From: Alphaproteobacteria bacterium
GTDB lineage: Bacteria > Pseudomonadota > Alphaproteobacteria > UBA7879 > UBA5542
DNA: 64,000 bases
Assembly (NCBI GenBank): GCA_046317875.1
Contig: JBKCVN010000026.1
Span: 12,617 to 76,616 of the forward strand
Direction: 5' to 3'
The position numbers and the translations under genes were made by a program. Position 1 is the first letter of the stretch. The number at the start of each line of letters is the position of its first letter. Below are positions 3,566 through 11,543 of this stretch, one piece after another. The notes under the pieces were generated by a model that did not search any database, had not been told where the DNA came from, and worked only from the letters and a program-made list of their open reading frames with translations.

Positions 3566-5344
3566 ATGAGAAAAAAATTTCTAGGCTTAACCATGTCCTT
3601 AAGTTTGGTGATGTCTTTGCTTTGTAATGCCCATGTAGAGTATGACCAAACATCCCCTGAAAAAGATATGTACTTCCAAGTAGAGACAGCACTAAGGGGT
3701 ATGAGAAATAAGATAGTGACTGCAATAACAGATCCATACCATGACACCATAGAATATTATTGGGCTTCCGCAGAACATAAAAAGACTTTTAATGAGACAA
3801 TTGATGGCCTGGCCCAGACTGCCATTTCTCGCATTCAATCAATTTCTGGTTGCAAAAGATCAGATGTAGCTATTAACTTAATTCAAAATTTTGCAAACGA
3901 TATAAAAATACAGGCCAAACCTTTTTTACAGCCAATTGATCAATTAAGAGGGGAGCTTTTGAAAAGTATATCTTGCTATGATGAGGGAAAAGCTACACCC
4001 GCTGAGAAAGAACAGTATGGGAAAATAGTTTATATGAAAAGAAAAGATGATGGTACCTTGTTTTCGGCTTCTGAACCACTGAAGGATGTATGGAAAAGGG
4101 TGGCACAGATAACGGCAGATGCAGATCTTTTTTTGAATACAAATCGCGTTTTATCTGATGCTCATAATATGACCCTTTTTGCTTTTTTGATGGGGGATCA
4201 AGATGTTAGGCATTCGGGAGAACCTTTGGCTATCTATCCGGCTTTTTATAATTACCTTGATCGGTTAAGTAATGGTACATTAAACCCAGAAGTAATACGT
4301 TTTGCATCAGTTTCCTTATATGAAGCTAGAGTGGGGGTTAAAGATAAAGAGACGGTTGACTGTTATGAACCCTCTGTGTTTGAATCTGTTTCTGAAGAAA
4401 AACCTGATGATAGTCAAATCGATTCGAATCATGTTAATATTAAAAAATCAGTGAAACTTTCAAAGCTGTTGGGGATATCTGAAGATGACCTGAATAAGAT
4501 TCGAGCAGCAAATCCTCCTTATAAATTCTCTAGCCCAGAATTAAAAGCCAAAGAAGAGGAACAAAAACGTTTATTAGAGGAAAAACAACGTGCCGAAGAA
4601 GAAGCCCGTCGTTTAGAAGAACAAAAACGTGCCGAATTACAAGCCCGTGCCGAATTACAAGCCCGTGCCGAAGAAGAAGCCCGTCGTTTAGAAGAAAAAC
4701 GCCTTCAGGAGAAGAAGGATGCGACCATCAATGCACCTGTTATGACAAGGATTCTTTTCCAGGATAATAGGCAAGAAATGAAGAAAATTTCCGATAAAAT
4801 GAAAGAAATTGAGCTTCTTCATTGTGATAAGGATGAGCACGGTCGGAAAAAAGAGAGGAAAAATCTTTTGGGAAATCCATTAGTTGTTAAAGAGATGATT
4901 ATGGATTATTCCCGAGGATATGAACAAGTAGGCCCCAAGGCTTTTTTTGATACTATTTTTGAAGCTTTCTTAAATCCTATGATGGGAACAGTTTTAAATG
5001 CTTCTATCCCCCAAGATTGTTCTACTTTAAAAGCATGGCTTTTACAGAAATATAAAGATTTTGGTGGAGAAAATCCAGATCAAACAATTAAATATATTTT
5101 TGATAAATTTAATAAGGGTGGTTTCGGGTATAACGTTCTTGTTCCGGCCTTAAGCCACTTCCATGGTTTTGTCACTTTATATGGACAAGACTCTAGATAT
5201 CAAGACGATATTGAGACTGTCACCATAAATGTTATGAGCATGCTGCAAGAGCAACTTGAGAAATGTGGTGATGGCGCCCAGGGCCGAGGATTTTTGATTG
5301 ATTGGGCCATCATTCAAGCGATCCAAAAAGGGGTTGGGGCCTAA
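3566..5344 (+). CDS. Secreted coiled-coil repeat protein, candidate effector
   Basis: Signal peptide MRKKFLGLTMSLSLVMSLLCNA. The central region is an E/Q/R/A-rich coiled coil with in-frame tandem repeats (EEEARRLEE, RAELQA). The gene is AT-rich relative to its neighbours. Confidence 0.55.
   Translation: MRKKFLGLTMSLSLVMSLLCNAHVEYDQTSPEKDMYFQVETALRGMRNKIVTAITDPYHDTIEYYWASAEHKKTFNETIDGLAQTAISRIQSISGCKRSDVAINLIQNFANDIKIQAKPFLQPIDQLRGELLKSISCYDEGKATPAEKEQYGKIVYMKRKDDGTLFSASEPLKDVWKRVAQITADADLFLNTNRVLSDAHNMTLFAFLMGDQDVRHSGEPLAIYPAFYNYLDRLSNGTLNPEVIRFASVSLYEARVGVKDKETVDCYEPSVFESVSEEKPDDSQIDSNHVNIKKSVKLSKLLGISEDDLNKIRAANPPYKFSSPELKAKEEEQKRLLEEKQRAEEEARRLEEQKRAELQARAELQARAEEEARRLEEKRLQEKKDATINAPVMTRILFQDNRQEMKKISDKMKEIELLHCDKDEHGRKKERKNLLGNPLVVKEMIMDYSRGYEQVGPKAFFDTIFEAFLNPMMGTVLNASIPQDCSTLKAWLLQKYKDFGGENPDQTIKYIFDKFNKGGFGYNVLVPALSHFHGFVTLYGQDSRYQDDIETVTINVMSMLQEQLEKCGDGAQGRGFLIDWAIIQAIQKGVGA
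4550..4712 (+). repeat. In-frame tandem nucleotide repeats inside the CDS (coiled-coil EEQKR/AEEEARRLEE/RAELQA units)
   Basis: gccgaattacaagcccgt occurs twice in tandem; gccgaagaagaagcccgtcgtttagaagaa occurs twice. Confidence 0.7.
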
Positions 5345-5370
5345 AACATTATACAATGTGTTACAGAAAA

Positions 5371-5390
5371 GGCGCCTAAGGGCGCCTTTT
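5371..5390. terminator. Bidirectional rho-independent terminator between convergent genes
   Basis: ggcgcc-taag-ggcgcc stem-loop with an A-run upstream and a T-run downstream (aaaaggcgcctaagggcgcctttt). Confidence 0.65.
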
Positions 5391-5425
5391 CATTTTTCAT
5401 AAAATTAACTTGGGTGTACAACCCA

Positions 5426-6328
5426 TTAATTTTTTGATGTGTTTGATTTCATGATTAATCTGGCAGCCCGCAACTTTTCAAAATCATCACCCGCGTGATA
5501 AGACGACCGGGTTAGGGGCGAGGCCGAGACCATCAGGAACCCTTTCCCGCGGGCCATGCGTTCATAATCTTGGAACTCTTCTGGTGTGGCATATCGCATG
5601 AGGGGGTGGTGTTTGGGTGTGGGTTGAAGATACTGACCAATGGTCATGAAATCAACATCTGCCGCCCGCAAATCATCCATCACTTGATAAATCTCGGGCT
5701 TTTCTTCGCCCAAGCCCACCATGATGCCCGATTTGGTAAAGATGGTGGGGTCTAGCTGCTTGACGCGATGCAGTAAATTCAACGAGTGGAAATAGCGGGC
5801 GCCGGGACGCACGGTGGCATACAGGCGCGGCACGGTTTCCAGGTTGTGGTTATACACATCGGGCTTGGCTGCCACAACGATTTCCAGGGCCCCAGGTTTA
5901 CGCAAAAAGTCGGGCGTTAGAATTTCAATGGTGGTGTGGGGGGATGTTTTTCGAATGGCCCGAATGGTTTGGGCAAAGTGCTCGGCGCCTCCATCGGGCA
6001 AATCATCCCGGTCGACGGACGTGATCACCACATGGGCAAGATTCAATTTTTTCAGCGCCTCGGCCACACGTTCGGGCTCGTGGGGGTCTAACAAATCGGG
6101 GCGCCCGGTTTTAATGTTACAGAAGGCACAGGCGCGCGTGCACACACTGCCCAGAATCATGATGGTGGCGTGTTGTTTGGCCCAGCACTCGCCAATATTG
6201 GGGCAGGCGGCCTCTTCACACACCGTATTCAGCTTGGCATCCCGAATCAACTGCCGCGTAGTGTGATACTCGGCCGAGATAGGGGCTTTAACTTTCAGCC
6301 AATCAGGTTTTGCAAGTTTTTCTGTCAT
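5426..6328 (-). CDS. lipA: Lipoyl synthase
   Basis: Radical-SAM CxxxCxxC (CTRACAFC) plus the N-terminal [12 protein letters not shown] cluster motif. Confidence 0.9.
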
Positions 6329-6337
6329 GATCCCTTA

Positions 6338-7735
6338 CTAAAAATGCAATGCTTTCCCATAGGCATCCAACACCGCCTCGTGCATCATTTCCGACAACGT
6401 TGGATGCGCAAAGACAGTATGCATCAATTCAGCTTCGGTGGTTTCCAGGGTCTTGCCCACCACGTAGCCTTGGATGAGTTCGGTGACCTCGGCGCCGATC
6501 ATGTGGGCACCCAAAAGCTCGCCTGTTTTGTCATCAAAAATGGTTTTGATGAGTCCTTCCGCATCGCCCAAGGCAATGGCCTTACCATTCGCCATATAAG
6601 GGAAACGACCCACCCGAACTTTATGGCCTTTTTGTTTGGCAGCGGCTTCAGTAAGGCCCACGCTGGCCACCTGGGGCAAGGAATAAGTGCATCCGGGAAT
6701 ATTGGATTTTTTCAAGGGGTGCACATGGGGTTGGTTGGCAATTTTTTCCACACAAATGATGGCTTCATGGCTGGCCTTATGCGCGAGCCACGGGGCCCCG
6801 GCCACATCGCCAATGGCATAGACGCCTGGTTCATCGGTGGCACACCATTCATTGGTTTTGATCTGGTTTTTTTCTACCTTGACCTTTGTGTTTTCAAGGC
6901 CCAAGTTTTCCGTATTGCCCACAATACCCGTGGCCACAATGACGCGGTCCACCGTTAGGGTGGTTATTTTGCCTTTATGGTCTAATGTGGCTTTTACGGA
7001 GTCTTTTCCTTTTTCCAGGCTTTTAACCGTGGTGCCCGTATGAATCTTCATGCCTTGTTTTTCAAACATTTTTTGCGCATTGGCCGAGATTTCGGCGTCT
7101 TCCACCGGCAGAATGCGGTCTTGAATTTCCACCACGGTGACTTCGGCCCCCAGCGTACGGTAAAAGCTGGCAAATTCCACCCCAATGGCGCCCGATCCCA
7201 CCACCAATAAACTTTGGGGCATGTGTTCGGGGGTCATGGCTTCTTTCGAGGTCCAAATAAGATGACCGTCTGGTTCAAGGCCGGGCAAAACCCGGGGACG
7301 TGCGCCTGTGGCCAAAATGATATGAGACGCGGTTAAAACCTGTTTGTTGGCACCCTCCGTCACTTCCAGTTTTTTTTGACCCAATAATTTGCCATAGCCT
7401 GGGATGAGGGTAACTTTATTTTTTTTCATAAGATGGCTGATACCACCCGAGAGTTGGTGTGATACTTTCCGAGAGCGCTCGACAATTTTTTTGATATCAA
7501 ATTTAATAGAAGAGGCCGACAACCCAAATTCATCTAAATGATGCATCAGGTGATAAATTTCAGCCGAGCGTAATAATGCCTTGGTGGGAATACATCCCCA
7601 ATTAAGACATACACCACCCAACTTATCTTTTTCCACCAGGGCTGTTTTTAAGCCTAACTGGGCCGCCCGAATGGCTGCCACATACCCACCGGGCCCACCG
7701 CCCACCACAATAAGATCAAAAGACTGAGACATCAT
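6338..7735 (-). CDS. lpdA: Dihydrolipoamide dehydrogenase (E3)
   Basis: GGGPGGYVAAIRAAQLG FAD motif and the GGVCLNWGCIPTK redox-active disulfide. Confidence 0.9.
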   Translation of the reverse strand: MMSQSFDLIVVGGGPGGYVAAIRAAQLGLKTALVEKDKLGGVCLNWGCIPTKALLRSAEIYHLMHHLDEFGLSASSIKFDIKKIVERSRKVSHQLSGGISHLMKKNKVTLIPGYGKLLGQKKLEVTEGANKQVLTASHIILATGARPRVLPGLEPDGHLIWTSKEAMTPEHMPQSLLVVGSGAIGVEFASFYRTLGAEVTVVEIQDRILPVEDAEISANAQKMFEKQGMKIHTGTTVKSLEKGKDSVKATLDHKGKITTLTVDRVIVATGIVGNTENLGLENTKVKVEKNQIKTNEWCATDEPGVYAIGDVAGAPWLAHKASHEAIICVEKIANQPHVHPLKKSNIPGCTYSLPQVASVGLTEAAAKQKGHKVRVGRFPYMANGKAIALGDAEGLIKTIFDDKTGELLGAHMIGAEVTELIQGYVVGKTLETTEAELMHTVFAHPTLSEMMHEAVLDAYGKALHF

Positions 7736-7743
7736 ACGACTCC

Positions 7744-8991
7744 TTACACCAACAATAGGGCTGGATTTTCAATATATTTCTTGAAGGCTTGCAACAACTG
7801 ACTACCCACGCTGCCATCCACCACACGGTGATCTACGGATAGCGAGCATGTCATCACTGTGGCAACGGCCAGTTGTCCGTTTTTCACCACCGGGCGCTGT
7901 TCACCGGCACCCACGGCCAGGATGCATCCTTGGGGGGGATTGATGATGGCTTCGAATTGTTTAATGCCGAACATACCTAGGTTCGAAACGCTGAAGGACC
8001 CGCCTTGGAATTCTTCGGGTTTTAATTTGCCTTCTTTGGCCTTTTGAACCAGGGTTTTGACTTCCTGGGAAATGGACAACAGGGATTTTAGGTTAGCCAT
8101 TTTTACAATGGGGGTAATAAGGCCATCTTCAATGGCCACCGCCACTGAAATATCGGATGTATTGTAATATCGAATGGTTTGACCCATCCACGAGGCATTG
8201 GCTTCGGGCACATCACGCAAGGCCAACGCCACGGCTTTTAACACGAAATCATTCACCGTTACTTTGACATTTAAATGGGTATTGATGGATTGACGGGCGG
8301 ACATCAGGGCATCCAGTTCGCAATCAACGGTTAGGTAAAAATGGGGTACCGATTGTTTGGATTCGGTCAGGCGTTGGGCAATGACGCGACGCATGTTGGA
8401 TACGGGTTTGTCCTCATACAAAGGACCATGATGCACGGGGGCGTGGCCTAGGCCCGCAGAGCCGGGCACAAAGTTTTCGATATCTTGTTTGATGATGCGA
8501 CCATGGGGGCCCGAGCCTTGGACCTGGCGCAAATTAATGTGTCGTTCCGTGGCCAACCGTCGGGCCAGGGGGGATGCCACAACGCGACCTGTGGACATGG
8601 TCATGCTAGGTGCGGGCGCTGAGGAAACAGGTGCAGCTGGGACACTGGGTGCAACAGGTGCAGGTGCAGTGACCACAGGTTCTTGTTTCGGTGCTTCGGG
8701 GGCCGCTGCTGCTGTGAATTTGTAACTGTCAAGGGCGCTTTTGTCTTCGCCTTTTTCCAGAATCAGCGCAATAGGGCTGTTCACTTTTACATTATCGGTG
8801 CCTTCGGGAATAAGGATTTTTCCTAAGATGCCTTCATCCACCGCTTCCACTTCCATGGTGGCTTTATCGGTTTCGATTTCTGCAATGACTTGGCCGGCCG
8901 TAAGGGCATCGCCTTCTTTTTTATGCCACTTCACCAAGTTACCTTCGGTCATGGTGGGGGACAAGGCGGGCATTAGAATTTCAATAGGCAT
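7744..8991 (-). CDS. pdhC: Pyruvate dehydrogenase E2 dihydrolipoamide acetyltransferase
   Basis: Lipoyl domain (IETDKATMEV), Ala/Pro linker, and a catalytic domain with SLSVDHRVVDG. Confidence 0.9.
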   Translation of the reverse strand: MPIEILMPALSPTMTEGNLVKWHKKEGDALTAGQVIAEIETDKATMEVEAVDEGILGKILIPEGTDNVKVNSPIALILEKGEDKSALDSYKFTAAAAPEAPKQEPVVTAPAPVAPSVPAAPVSSAPAPSMTMSTGRVVASPLARRLATERHINLRQVQGSGPHGRIIKQDIENFVPGSAGLGHAPVHHGPLYEDKPVSNMRRVIAQRLTESKQSVPHFYLTVDCELDALMSARQSINTHLNVKVTVNDFVLKAVALALRDVPEANASWMGQTIRYYNTSDISVAVAIEDGLITPIVKMANLKSLLSISQEVKTLVQKAKEGKLKPEEFQGGSFSVSNLGMFGIKQFEAIINPPQGCILAVGAGEQRPVVKNGQLAVATVMTCSLSVDHRVVDGSVGSQLLQAFKKYIENPALLLV

Positions 8992-9012
8992 ATAAGACCT
9001 CCGATTGGGTTA

Positions 9013-9502
9013 AAGATGGATTGCTTTGTCGGACTTTTGGTCCTCCGCGCAATGACGATAAAAGATGGCCTTCGTCATTGCGAGGGAATCCGAAGGATGA
9101 ACGAAGCAATCCACCTTTCTTAATAACAAACCTAATAACAAATGAATTCATACAAATCTTTCCAATCTGGGTTCATGCCGGCGATCAATTCAATCTTCTT
9201 CTGGCGAGATCCACCTTTAAGCTGTTTCTCTCGGGTGATCGCATCAAACATGGTTTCAAAAAATTCGTAATAGACCAGATTTTTGCAACCATACTTTTCT
9301 GTAAAAGAGCCTTTTATTTCTGCCTCTCGATGTTGAAAAACGCGATGCGTCAAACTAGATGTTACTCCTACATACAGAGTGCCTCTGTATCCGTTTGCCA
9401 TTATGTACACAGCAGGCTGCTTTTTCATAACACTTAACGACCCATACACAAACAAGATGGTTTGCTTTGTCGGACTTTTGGTCCTCCGCACAATGACGAT
9501 AG
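9013..9502. mobile_element. GIY-YIG nuclease cassette bounded by ~45-bp direct repeats, inserted between pdhB and pdhC
   Basis: Near-identical repeats at 9013-9060 and 9456-9502 (gatgg(a/t)ttgctttgtcggacttttggtcctccgc(g/a)caatgacgata). An imperfect palindrome (cgcaatgacga...tcgtcattgcg) lies after the first copy, and a third partial copy (attgctttgtcg) at 9508-9519. Confidence 0.45.
9132..9428 (-). CDS. Small GIY-YIG nuclease family protein (YhbQ/UPF0213-like)
   Basis: YIMANGYRGTLYVGVTSSLTHRVFQHRE (GIY...YVG) and the conserved KNLVYYE...REKQLKG. The likely start is MKKQ at 9428 rather than the upstream ORF start. Confidence 0.75.
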   Translation of the reverse strand: MKKQPAVYIMANGYRGTLYVGVTSSLTHRVFQHREAEIKGSFTEKYGCKNLVYYEFFETMFDAITREKQLKGGSRQKKIELIAGMNPDWKDLYEFICY

Positions 9503-9540
9503 GGGAATTGCTTTGTCGCTTCGCAAAAGAAAACCATTCC

Positions 9541-10518
9541 TTACCTATATGTTACTTTTTTTACCGCTTCTATGATGTCAGCTACTTGCGGCAGGGCCAT
9601 TTTTTCAAGGTTAGCTGCATAGGGTAAGGGCACATCTTTGGCGGATACACGCACTACAGGGGCATCTAGATGATCGAAGGCGTGCTCCATCATCTTAGCT
9701 GCAATTTCGGCCCCAAAGCCACAGGTGGGCCAGGTTTCTTCTACCGACACCAACCGGTTGGTTTTTTGTACTGATTCTACAATCAAATCCGTATCCAAGG
9801 GCCGCAGGGTACGCAGATCAATTACTTCCGCATCAATGCCTTCTTGGGCCAACAGTTCGGCGGCTTGAAGGGTTTTACCCACCATCAAAGAGAATGCCGT
9901 GATGGTTACATCTTTCCCTGGACGAACAATTTTACCCTTTCCAATGGGCACCACATGATCGCCCTCGGGGACCTCAAACTTTTGCCCATAGAGTAATTCA
10001 TTTTCCAAAAAAATCACGGGGTTGGGGTCACGGATGGCCGCTTTTAAAAGCCCCTTCGCATCGGCTGCATCATAGGGCGCAATGACTTTTAACCCAGGGC
10101 AGTGACTGTACCAACTGGCAAAACATTGAGAGTGTTGGGCCCCCACACGAGAGGCTGGTCCATTGGGGCCACGGAAAACAATAGGGCAACCCATTTGACC
10201 ACCAGACATGTACAATGTTTTGGCTGCCGAGTTTACGATTTGGTCGATGGCCTGCATCGCAAAGTTAAAGGTCATGAACTCGACAATAGGTTTTAATCCC
10301 ATAAAGGCAGCACCCACCCCAAGCCCTGCAAAACCATGCTCGGTGATGGGGGTATCGATGACCCGCCCAGGTCCAAATTCTTGCAACAACCCTTGGGTCA
10401 CTTTATAGGCGCCTTGGTATTCGGCTACTTCCTCGCCCATGACAAAAACATCAGGGTCTTGGCGCATTTCTTCCGCCATAGCTTCACAAAGGGCTTCACG
10501 AATCGATAGAATAGGCAT
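9541..10518 (-). CDS. pdhB: Pyruvate dehydrogenase E1 beta subunit (no N-terminal lipoyl domain)
   Basis: Transketolase-like pyrimidine-binding and C-terminal domains; 325 aa. Confidence 0.9.
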
Positions 10519-10529
10519 GGGAGATTTCC

Positions 10530-11543
10530 TTAATTTTCAATAAGAACATCTGTATATAATTCAGATGCATCGGGTTCGGGTGAATTTTGTGCAAATTCAG
10601 CAGACTCTTTAATAGCGTCTTTAACGCGCTCGGCCACCTGTTCAAAGTCGGCTGCCGTGCAGATTTTTTCTGCCAATAAAATTGATTCCATATTGGTTAA
10701 TGGATCATTAGTGGCGCGATACGTTTCAACTTCTTCTTTGGTGCGATACTTCGCTGGGTCAGACATGGAGTGTCCCCGATAGCGATAAGTGTCCATCTCG
10801 AGAATATAGGGACCCTTGCCCGAACGAATGTGATCGAAGGCTCGCTTTGCGGCCCGTTGAACTTCGAAAATATCCATTCCATTTACCTTTTCCCCAGGAA
10901 TACCATAGGGTTCGCCACGGGTATAAAGGTCTTTGGTGGTGGTATGGCGTGCGACAGCGGTTCCCATGGAATATTGATTATTTTCCACCACGTAAAGAAC
11001 GGGCAGTTTCCAAAGGGCTGCCATATTATAGGCTTCGGCCACCTGGCCTTGGTTCGAGGCCCCATCGCCCATATAGGTGACGGATATGGCGCCCGTGTTC
11101 TTGTATTTGTGCGCAAAAGCCATGCCCGTTCCCAGGGGAACTTGGGCGCCTACGATACCGTGGCCCCCGAAAAAGTTTTTCTCGCGGCTGAACATATGCA
11201 TTGATCCGCCCTTACCCTTGGAGACACCACCGATGCGCCCCGTCAGTTCGGCCATAATCCCGTTGGCCGGCATCCCACAGGCCAGCATATGACCATGGTC
11301 ACGATAGGCCGTAATAATGGTGTCGTTTTCTTTTTGCATGGACTGAATGCCCACCACTACTGCTTCTTGACCAATATATAAATGGCAAAAGCCCGCAATC
11401 AACCCCATCCCATAAAGTTGGCCTGATTTTTCTTCAAAGCGACGAATCAGCAACATATCTTCGTATAGTTTTAATAGTTGCTGTTTATTTTGATTGTTTA
11501 CTTTTGAGTTCATTGCAATATCTGTTTTTTCTTTCACTGACAA
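10530..11543 (-). CDS. pdhA: Pyruvate dehydrogenase E1 alpha subunit
   Basis: TPP-binding region [23 protein letters not shown] and a [11 protein letters not shown] phosphorylation-loop-like motif. Confidence 0.9.

Follow-up and report, generated by a model that had tools for sequence, protein, structure and literature searches.

The closest described relatives of the system considered here are the Ssn proteins, a family of site-specific single-stranded-DNA (ssDNA) endonucleases with SsnA as the founding member (Chenal et al., Nat Commun 2025; PMC11893778). SsnA of Neisseria meningitidis is a single-domain GIY-YIG protein of 94 amino acids (aa; cd10448 in CDD, named GIY-YIG_unchar_3), which binds the hairpin repeat NTS (CGTCATTCCCGCGMAVGCGGGAATCYRG) solely as ssDNA and solely on that strand, and which cuts a few nucleotides upstream (5') of the hairpin repeat. 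The mutants Y6A, Y17A, and E64A keep their binding but lose cleavage; within the NTS, the three nucleotides 5' of the palindrome are most important for cutting and the C right after the palindrome for binding, whereas RNA and double-stranded DNA (dsDNA) are not substrates and RNA is not even bound (PMC11893778). Oriented hairpin repeats (NTS/SRM), to which the enzyme binds, typically border the Ssn genes; a degenerate SRM motif occurs near 71% of the homolog genes and on both sides in 42% (PMC11893778). In N. meningitidis, the SsnA/NTS system reduces transformation by NTS-containing DNA, and the authors likened the NTS-ssnA-NTS arrangement to an insertion sequence (IS) and to REP/RAYT, leaving its mobility and its role in other bacteria open (PMC11893778). 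A 98-aa GIY-YIG open reading frame (ORF) between pdhB and pdhC, located in a 64-kb stretch of an alphaproteobacterial contig (JBKCVN010000026.1; the whole stretch is referred to as the window, and all coordinates are window positions), very probably encodes another enzyme of this family, with the surrounding repeats representing its cognate SRM in three intact copies and a decayed one. A system of this kind has been known since 2025, and the locus is a further example, which falls into a stem-class subgroup outside the published motif.

The relationship to SsnA is most evident in the protein itself. It shares 53% identity over 90 aa (pairwise E 3e-33) with a 94-aa protein of Neisseria gonorrhoeae (PLSDB record NZ_CP119140.1; L177:1498-1782), which was also found when the 98-aa protein was searched by tblastn against 7.3 Gb (E 4e-21); the homology criterion applied to SsnA relatives in the published study was E < 1e-10 (PMC11893778). 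The gonococcal protein carries Y6, Y17, and E64 and has NTS repeats on both sides of its gene; judged by its length, these three residues, and the flanking NTS, it appears to be the ortholog of N. meningitidis SsnA. Residues Y8, Y19, and E67 of the 98-aa protein align with Y6, Y17, and E64 of SsnA and, together with R29 and H33, are invariant among 28 homologs. The 98-aa protein further shows 54-56% identity to homologs in Emcibacter and Sansalvadorimonas, which have the canonical GTCATTCCCGCGCAGGCGGGAATC as their flanking repeat. Some PLSDB records (NZ_CP119140.1, NZ_CP119142.1, NZ_AP026896.1, and CP090106.1) are Mb-sized chromosomes of N. gonorrhoeae, Aeromonas caviae, and S. meliloti that have been filed as plasmids; this filing enabled the comparison with Neisseria but distorts plasmid statistics.

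The sole Pfam match of the 98-aa protein is GIY-YIG (PF01541; E 9e-12, residues 6-78), the protein ending about 20 residues later, and there is no HUH/Y1 tyrosine transposase among the Pfam results. An AlphaFold2 model based on the 28 homologs (mean predicted local distance difference test score 93.6) has a beta-beta-alpha-alpha-beta-alpha-alpha layout, and its best fold matches in the PDB are all GIY-YIG domains (the UPF0213 protein 1zg2 on top, Slx1, and the N-terminal domain of UvrC); a sequence search of the PDB gave no match. The 98-aa protein has more than 4,900 matches, which makes the family a very large one. One of them, in an alphaproteobacterial metagenome-assembled genome (MAG), is 100% identical; the next best reaches 69%, and relatives occur in Legionella, Amoebophilus, Berkiella, and others. 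NCBIfam holds no specific model for the protein, and searches of PADLOC and PHROGs with it gave no match, so it is neither a catalogued defence protein nor a catalogued phage protein. The GIY-YIG domain, a weak score against TIGR01453 (the model for group I intron endonucleases), and the insertion between conserved genes might recall a free-standing, I-TevI-like homing endonuclease that targets the pdh locus in dsDNA. Such an origin is scarcely conceivable, because the TIGR01453 score (20.3 bits) is far under the cut-off of 56, the 98 aa comprise the catalytic domain only and no DNA-binding domain, there is no PHROGs match and there are almost no phage homologs, and the homologs, each accompanied by SRMs of its own, are scattered over many unrelated loci.

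The repeats belong to a single type of oriented unit. Read on one strand, the consensus consists of 5'-CGTC, the stem ATTGC, an internal loop with a variable inner hairpin, the complementary GCAAT, and CC-3'. All three intact units read CGTC-ATTG(C/T)...GCAA(T/A)-CC and share the flanks of the NTS, namely CGTC 5' of the stem and AATCC at the 3' side, with the C right after the stem. The ssn gene (9132-9428, minus strand, stop codon included) is flanked on both sides by such oriented hairpin repeats: unit F1 (9454-9501, minus strand; 5'-TATCGTCATTGTGCGGAGGACCAAAAGTCCGACAAAGCAAACCATCTT-3') lies upstream on the coding strand, unit R (9072-9118, plus strand; 5'-TCGTCATTGCGAGGGAATCCGAAGGATGAACGAAGCAATCCACCTTT-3') lies downstream on the opposite strand, and unit F2 (9013-9060, minus strand; 5'-TATCGTCATTGCGCGGAGGACCAAAAGTCCGACAAAGCAATCCATCTT-3') is the most distal one downstream. 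Unit R ends in the same way as F1 and F2 and differs from them in its inner hairpin (ATCC-GAA-GGAT). A pattern search of the 64 kb recovered the three intact copies and no others, where chance alone would yield none.

Units F2 and F1 are the first and the second copy of a 48-nt direct repeat with 96% identity, whose 40-nt core has two matches in the window and none in each of 100 dinucleotide shuffles. Units F2 and R are arranged head-to-head and jointly form an inverted repeat of 107 nt (9012-9118), with 47-nt arms (9012-9058 and 9072-9118) that are 72% complementary, a gap of 13 nt, and perfect inner arms of 11 nt (CGCAATGACGA/TCGTCATTGCG); the right arm thus represents the repeat unit a third time, in inverted orientation. 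A decayed fourth unit at about 9505-9533 (minus strand; TTTTGCGAAGCGACAAAGCAATTCC) has kept its 3' half and lost its CGTCATTGCG head, and the partial repeat ATTGCTTTGTCG at 9507-9518 is its tail. An earlier note on this DNA, made from the sequence alone, had placed the near-identical direct repeats within 1-2 nt of the positions given here and had also recognized the partial repeat and the palindrome, which is larger than it had proposed. Its view of the paired direct repeats as the basic element gives way to a unit of about 40 nt (39-nt core) that is present 3.5 times at the locus and in both orientations. Its proposal that repeat and palindrome act as target or recombination sites holds only insofar as the repeats are tied to the nuclease, but in the characterized Ssn homologs such repeats are recognition hairpins in ssDNA (PMC11893778). 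As to the suspected genome-wide distribution in the manner of a MITE or REP element, the repeat family does occur in many genomes, with REP-like arrays also away from the gene in Bradyrhizobium, but within the 64-kb window the repeat is found only at the gene.

There are several points that weigh against the assignment to the Ssn family. The published search string for SRMs (HGTCWYN0-2YYVSBRHN0-5WNVSBRGN0-2RNCYNB) has no match in the window, although it recognizes the canonical NTS. It misses the units because the G of the ATTGC stem, which is not pyrimidine-rich, violates the 'YY' positions; since the string is a search device that also misses 29% of the homologs in the published study (PMC11893778), the mismatch marks a variant motif class and not an exclusion of the protein from the family. 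Recognition of ATTGC-stem hairpins by their cognate enzymes is presumed by analogy with the characterized homologs. In addition, single units folded as DNA with nearest-neighbour parameters reach only about -4.5 kcal/mol (z about -0.5), which is not better than shuffles, and an unbiased mismatch scan of the outer stem yielded just a handful of compensated pairs, a modest covariation that is explained by the near invariance of the stem. The nearest-neighbour DNA model ignores sheared G-A pairs. Such pairs are expected in GAGCGNAGCGAA, as in d(GCGNAGC) mini-hairpins. Single-unit thermodynamic folding was rejected as evidence for hairpins, and the hairpin argument therefore rests on the compensated stem classes and on the published biochemistry. 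Finally, two substitutions weaken the outer stem of F1 (ATTGT...GCAAA), which together with the decayed fourth unit indicates that the array is partly eroding; looser scans of the 64-kb window detected neither further whole units nor half-sites outside the locus, so that neither solo units nor a target set are visible; and a precise empty site is not observable among the relatives, whose PdhB is at most 78% identical.

Support for a functional tie between repeats and nuclease comes from the homologs. In a set of 80 loci from species-representative genomes of about 10 phyla (L012-L091), which include Alpha- and Gammaproteobacteria, Bacteroidota, Cyanobacteria, Planctomycetota, Omnitrophota, members of the candidate phyla radiation, Spirochaetia, and Campylobacteraceae, 44 have units of the strict pattern GTCATTGCG...GCAATCC no more than 300 bp from the gene, and 30 have them to either side of it. 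A generic unit search used GTC, a 5-nt stem, the complementary stem, and then C. Units with an ATTGC stem number 171 in the 46.8 kb beside the genes but only 59 in the 606.6 kb further off, which corresponds to densities of 3.66 and 0.097 per kb and thus to a 38-fold enrichment; unrelated alphaproteobacterial pdh loci contain a single unit in 362 kb. The commonest unit across the homolog loci is CGTCATTGCGAGCGNAGCGAAGCAATCC, and longer units hold inner hairpins that are unrelated to each other (GGCC-ATT-GGCC, TCCGCC-TAT-GGCGGA, CCCCGGA-CTTGC-TCCGGGG). The number and orientation of the units around the gene are variable; the arrangement F-gene-R is found most often, and inverted doublets to either side of the gene are also common. 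In the chromosome of Bradyrhizobium sp. DASA03120 (L017), tandem arrays of SRM doublets, inverted and repeating about every 167 bp, flank ssn on both sides (4514-5908 and beyond), and further doublets are located 2-5 kb from the gene, which resembles an expansion in the style of REP/BIME.

This association bears on the possibility that the gene encodes a housekeeping repair nuclease of the YhbQ/UPF0213 type, next to repeats that are unrelated REP-like or terminator sequences. The earlier note had labeled the protein YhbQ-type, and a small single-domain GIY-YIG protein whose best fold match in the PDB is 1zg2 and whose gene is co-oriented and probably co-transcribed with the operon would suit such a role. 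However, the protein is only 26% identical to YhbQ of Escherichia coli over 66 aa (pairwise E 0.002), in contrast to the 53% over 90 aa shared with the gonococcal SsnA ortholog, and the label was rejected in favor of the Ssn family. A housekeeping function is very improbable also because the repeats are enriched 38-fold beside homologs across phyla and co-vary with the protein, because the gene is missing from the spacer in all 80 related operons, and because no terminator-like T-tract follows the hairpins.

The co-variation of repeat and protein concerns the residues that directly follow the catalytic glutamate. This loop reads K-G-G-S-R in the 98-aa protein and K-K-W-N-R in Neisseria. Among the 80 homolog loci, proteins with x-G-S-R after REKQ(L/I)K are accompanied by a dominant ATTGC stem in 50 cases and by ATTCC or ATCCC in none, whereas proteins with x-W-x-R are accompanied by ATTCC, ATCCC, or ACTCC stems in 9 cases and by ATTGC in none (Fisher p = 8e-11). 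The co-variation makes the four-residue loop a candidate specificity determinant of Ssn nucleases, and its residues may contact the stem of the hairpin. The locus in the window belongs to the specificity subgroup that combines the ATTGC/GCAAT stem with K-G-G-S-R. The rarer stems are compensated on both sides, as in ATGGC/GCCAT (Inquilinus), ATCGC/GCGAT, ATTAC/GTAAT, and ATCCT/AGGAT.

The palindrome might alternatively act at the level of RNA, with the hairpins serving as stabilizers, processing sites, or attenuators of the mRNA that tune pdhC, or as a small RNA. Folded as RNA, the 107-nt palindrome reaches -48 to -54 kcal/mol (z = -6.5 and -8.1 on the two strands), and it lies inside the operon transcript, just upstream of the ribosome-binding site of pdhC. 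A primary role of this kind is nevertheless improbable: Rfam reports no family for the window at gathering thresholds or for 8950-9580 at permissive thresholds, the units of other loci occur in either orientation to the gene and its neighbors, as would fit a signal on a DNA strand, and the characterized SsnA does not bind RNA. A side effect of the hairpins on the pdh mRNA may exist. The best Rfam match (9019-9111) is Clostridiales-1 (RF01699), with 18 bits against a threshold of 48 (E 0.18). The consensus of Clostridiales-1 contains GGAUUGCGGGAGUGCGUAGCACGGAGCAAUCC, which is close to the 'long' SRM unit CATTGCGAGGAGCGTAGCGACGAAGCAATCC, and this Rfam 'RNA' may contain a DNA hairpin repeat of the Ssn type.

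The module is likely to have arrived by insertion or horizontal transfer. None of the 80 metagenome loci that come closest in PdhB (up to 78% identity) has a GIY-YIG gene in the pdhB-pdhC spacer, and in 52 of the 75 related operons with a resolved spacer it measures no more than 96 nt. The nearest homologs of the nuclease (69% and 68% identity) are not syntenic, being located beside thiC/acyltransferase genes and downstream of groEL. The cassette of the earlier note, a small GIY-YIG nuclease gene co-oriented with the operon in the pdhB-pdhC spacer (98-aa ORF, Pfam E 9e-12), is real, and its presumed insertion left the coding sequences undisturbed, as the flanking ORFs pdhB and pdhC are both of full length. 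The opposite case, a repeat unique to this locus and a gene fixed at the same site in relatives, does not apply, since the repeat family is widespread and the gene is absent from the 80 related operons.

About 23 of the 75 related operons hold other small genes in the pdhB-pdhC spacer (e.g., L130:3981-4293, L149:3981-4851, L152:1645-2599, L114, and L120). These comprise a conserved 101-aa ORF (MAGPKEQPLPPDV...), sometimes together with a 140-aa ORF resembling cytidine/deoxycytidylate deaminases, or a lysine-rich ORF of 118-127 aa. The spacer is a repeated landing place for small genes. No enrichment of ssn in pdh operons is claimed, since a single independent locus among 80 could be a chance result.

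Movement as a unit is suggested by a Micavibrio MAG (L044; CAZHEE010000005.1), which contains two 378-bp SRM-ssn-SRM copies (4946-5323 and 8601-8978) with 100% identity to each other. The identity is bounded exactly by GTCATTGCG.../...CGCAATGAC (on each strand, GTCATTGCG), and the sequences flanking the two copies are unrelated. One copy is situated 6 nt past the stop codon of pdhA and 27 nt ahead of pdhB, the other 4 nt past the stop codon of pdhC and 19 nt ahead of lpdA; the copy in the window occupies the third spacer (pdhB-pdhC) of the pdh operon in a distant relative, whose PdhB is 72% identical. These observations would fit an autonomous, IS-like mobile element with SRM hairpin ends that are cut by its own GIY-YIG nuclease, of which the window copy would represent a recent transposition, with the additional unit F2 stemming either from a target hairpin already resident at the site or from the insertion itself. 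The perfect terminal inverted repeats of about 40 bp in a Legionella MAG (L012), the prevalence of the F-gene-R arrangement, the patchy cross-phylum distribution at 50-69% identity, the lack of synteny among the nearest homologs, and the IS-like architecture remarked by the authors of the published study (PMC11893778) point in the same direction.

Such an element is nonetheless doubtful. No strand-transfer activity is known for a GIY-YIG nuclease, Pfam detects no transposase domain, and a target-site duplication is absent from the module boundaries both in the Micavibrio MAG and in the window. A second ssn copy within 10 kb is present in only 2 of the 80 homolog loci, and one homolog (P0114) has a single, fixed context across 23 contigs from many samples. 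Moreover, the number and orientation of the units vary widely, unlike the fixed ends of an IS, the outermost units in the window are direct and not inverted, and the duplicates in the Micavibrio MAG could stem from gene conversion between pre-existing SRM pairs. The comparative evidence renders the mobility suspected in the earlier note plausible, yet unproven. Two loci on different metagenome contigs (L002:2600-3000 and L003:1170-1570) share the same ssn (100% identical protein P0038) and the same downstream gene for a UDP-glucose dehydrogenase but have different upstream neighbors; the point at which they part is a tail-to-tail SRM pair, which hints at the repeats as sites of rearrangement or recombination.

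A related possibility, to which we likewise assign only a minor chance, is that the modules of the ATTGC/K-G-G-S-R subgroup are or recently were self-mobilizing, i.e., hairpin-ended mobile DNA that is driven by a 95-aa GIY-YIG ssDNA nuclease and would spread via nicking at the hairpins followed by host repair or gene conversion instead of strand transfer, and that can settle in spacers of a few nucleotides within essential operons. Three observations are compatible with it: the Micavibrio copies are SRM-exact, the window copy occupies the third spacer of the pdh operon, and loop and stem co-vary.

For the preferred reading, an Ssn-family enzyme with its cognate SRMs, a mechanism can be proposed by analogy with the Neisseria and Wolbachia enzymes. 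The CGTC...AATCC strand, when exposed as ssDNA during replication, transformation, conjugation, or repair, would fold into a hairpin, which the nuclease would bind in an orientation-specific manner and nick a few nucleotides 5' of CGTC. The predicted substrate of the 98-aa protein is ssDNA with 5'-TATCGTCATTGCGCGGAGGACCAAAAGTCCGACAAAGCAATCCATC-3', and Y8, Y19, and E67 are its putative catalytic residues. The cleavable strand should be the minus strand for the units 9501->9454 and 9060->9013 and the plus strand for the unit 9072->9118. Judged by the geometry of the units, the cuts at R and F2 would fall on opposite strands in the 13-nt spacer between their 5' ends (9059-9071), and the cut at F1 near 9502-9506 on the minus strand. 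The module presumably arrived as an SRM-ssn-SRM unit and may have been kept as a tolerated, possibly domesticated, selfish module; candidate roles are the control of recombination with incoming ssDNA, as in Neisseria, or selfish maintenance.

The module fills the entire intergenic spacer between pdhB and pdhC (8992-9540; 549 nt). According to the ORF list, the operon comprises pdhA (10530-11543), pdhB (9541-10518), pdhC (7744-8991), lpdA (6338-7735), and lipA (5426-6328), all of which share the orientation of the ssn gene (minus strand). On this strand, the stop codon of pdhB is followed by the decayed unit, F1, ssn, R (on the opposite strand), 13 nt, F2, and another 21 nt ahead of the ATG of pdhC; the ribosome-binding site of pdhC (GGAGG) is intact within these final 21 nt. 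No promoter or terminator signal for the module rises above background, and no T-tract of the terminator type was found after the hairpins at the locus. Because the module is co-oriented, lacks a recognizable promoter or terminator of its own, and leaves the ribosome-binding site of pdhC intact, it is probably co-transcribed with the pdh operon.

Among the homolog loci, the closest ORF of 150 aa or more on the upstream side has the orientation of ssn in 54 of 69 cases (binomial p = 3e-6), whereas the downstream neighbor is co-oriented in only 37 of 73, both counts being based on crude ORF calling; this suggests that ssn relies for its expression on read-through from the gene upstream. The same organism is also represented by an independently assembled contig (Logan contig SRR31514666_1680206, 16 kb; L001:4000-4057) with a 100% identical PdhB, which was the only record retrieved for PdhB; it stops inside the upstream SRM unit, as a 48-nt repeat is expected to break short-k-mer assembly. 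An exact look-up of the 98-aa protein in the contig index gave no record. A 592-aa ORF (3566-5344, plus strand) adjoins lipA on the opposite strand; with its signal-peptide-like N-terminus and a coiled-coil repeat rich in Glu, Arg, and Ala (EEARRLEEQKRAELQARAELQARAEEEARRLEE), its product may be a secreted or effector-like protein.

The locus itself is explained by the family described in 2025 and is no discovery alone; the parts of note are the co-variation of loop and stem and the module boundaries in the Micavibrio MAG. Hairpins with an ATTGC stem are associated with much of the family, among it most of the 80 closest homologs, and are missed by the published string, so that SRM censuses using this string probably undercount. 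The co-variation of loop and stem matters for the development of Ssn enzymes as programmable cutters of ssDNA, and the nucleotide-exact boundaries of the Micavibrio duplicate make the question of NTS-ssnA-NTS mobility directly testable.

Compared with other known systems, the module shares the GIY-YIG catalytic core and a flavor of selfishness with homing endonucleases such as I-TevI and SegA-G, but these carry a long C-terminal DNA-binding domain and cut dsDNA, whereas the protein in the window is a bare catalytic domain from a family restricted to ssDNA. With YhbQ/UPF0213 of E. coli it has in common the size of about 100 aa, the single GIY-YIG domain, and the fold (1zg2), although the sequence identity amounts to only 26% over 66 aa. 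Elements of the IS200/IS605 type are likewise small, have sub-terminal hairpins on one strand, depend on ssDNA, and require no long terminal inverted repeats. However, their TnpA cuts both ends on one strand, whereas the F-gene-R layout of Ssn modules places the hairpins on opposite strands, and the ssn module has neither TnpA nor TnpB.

The similarities are greater with REP/BIME sequences and their RAYTs, and with REPINs, which also combine a mostly single-copy nuclease gene with short flanking hairpins that are recognized as ssDNA, and which resemble the Ssn modules in their inverted doublets and, in some genomes (e.g., the Bradyrhizobium chromosome), in their dispersed arrays. By contrast, the nucleases belong to unrelated families: RAYTs are HUH/Y1 transposases of the IS200/IS605 superfamily, whereas the enzyme in the window is a hydrolytic GIY-YIG nuclease, for which covalent strand transfer is therefore not expected. 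The closest counterpart is Ssn/SsnA. The module differs from it in its ATTGC/GCAAT stem with an internal loop and a variable inner hairpin, in place of the 6-bp ATTCCC/GGGAAT stem of Neisseria, and in the absence of repeat expansion from the 64-kb window, as opposed to hundreds of copies in Neisseria; SsnA has been characterized biochemically, whereas the ATTGC subgroup is known from its sequences. Both have in common a single GIY-YIG domain of about 95 aa with aligned Y/Y/E residues, oriented hairpin repeats on both sides of the gene, and the CGTC and AATCC flanks of these repeats.

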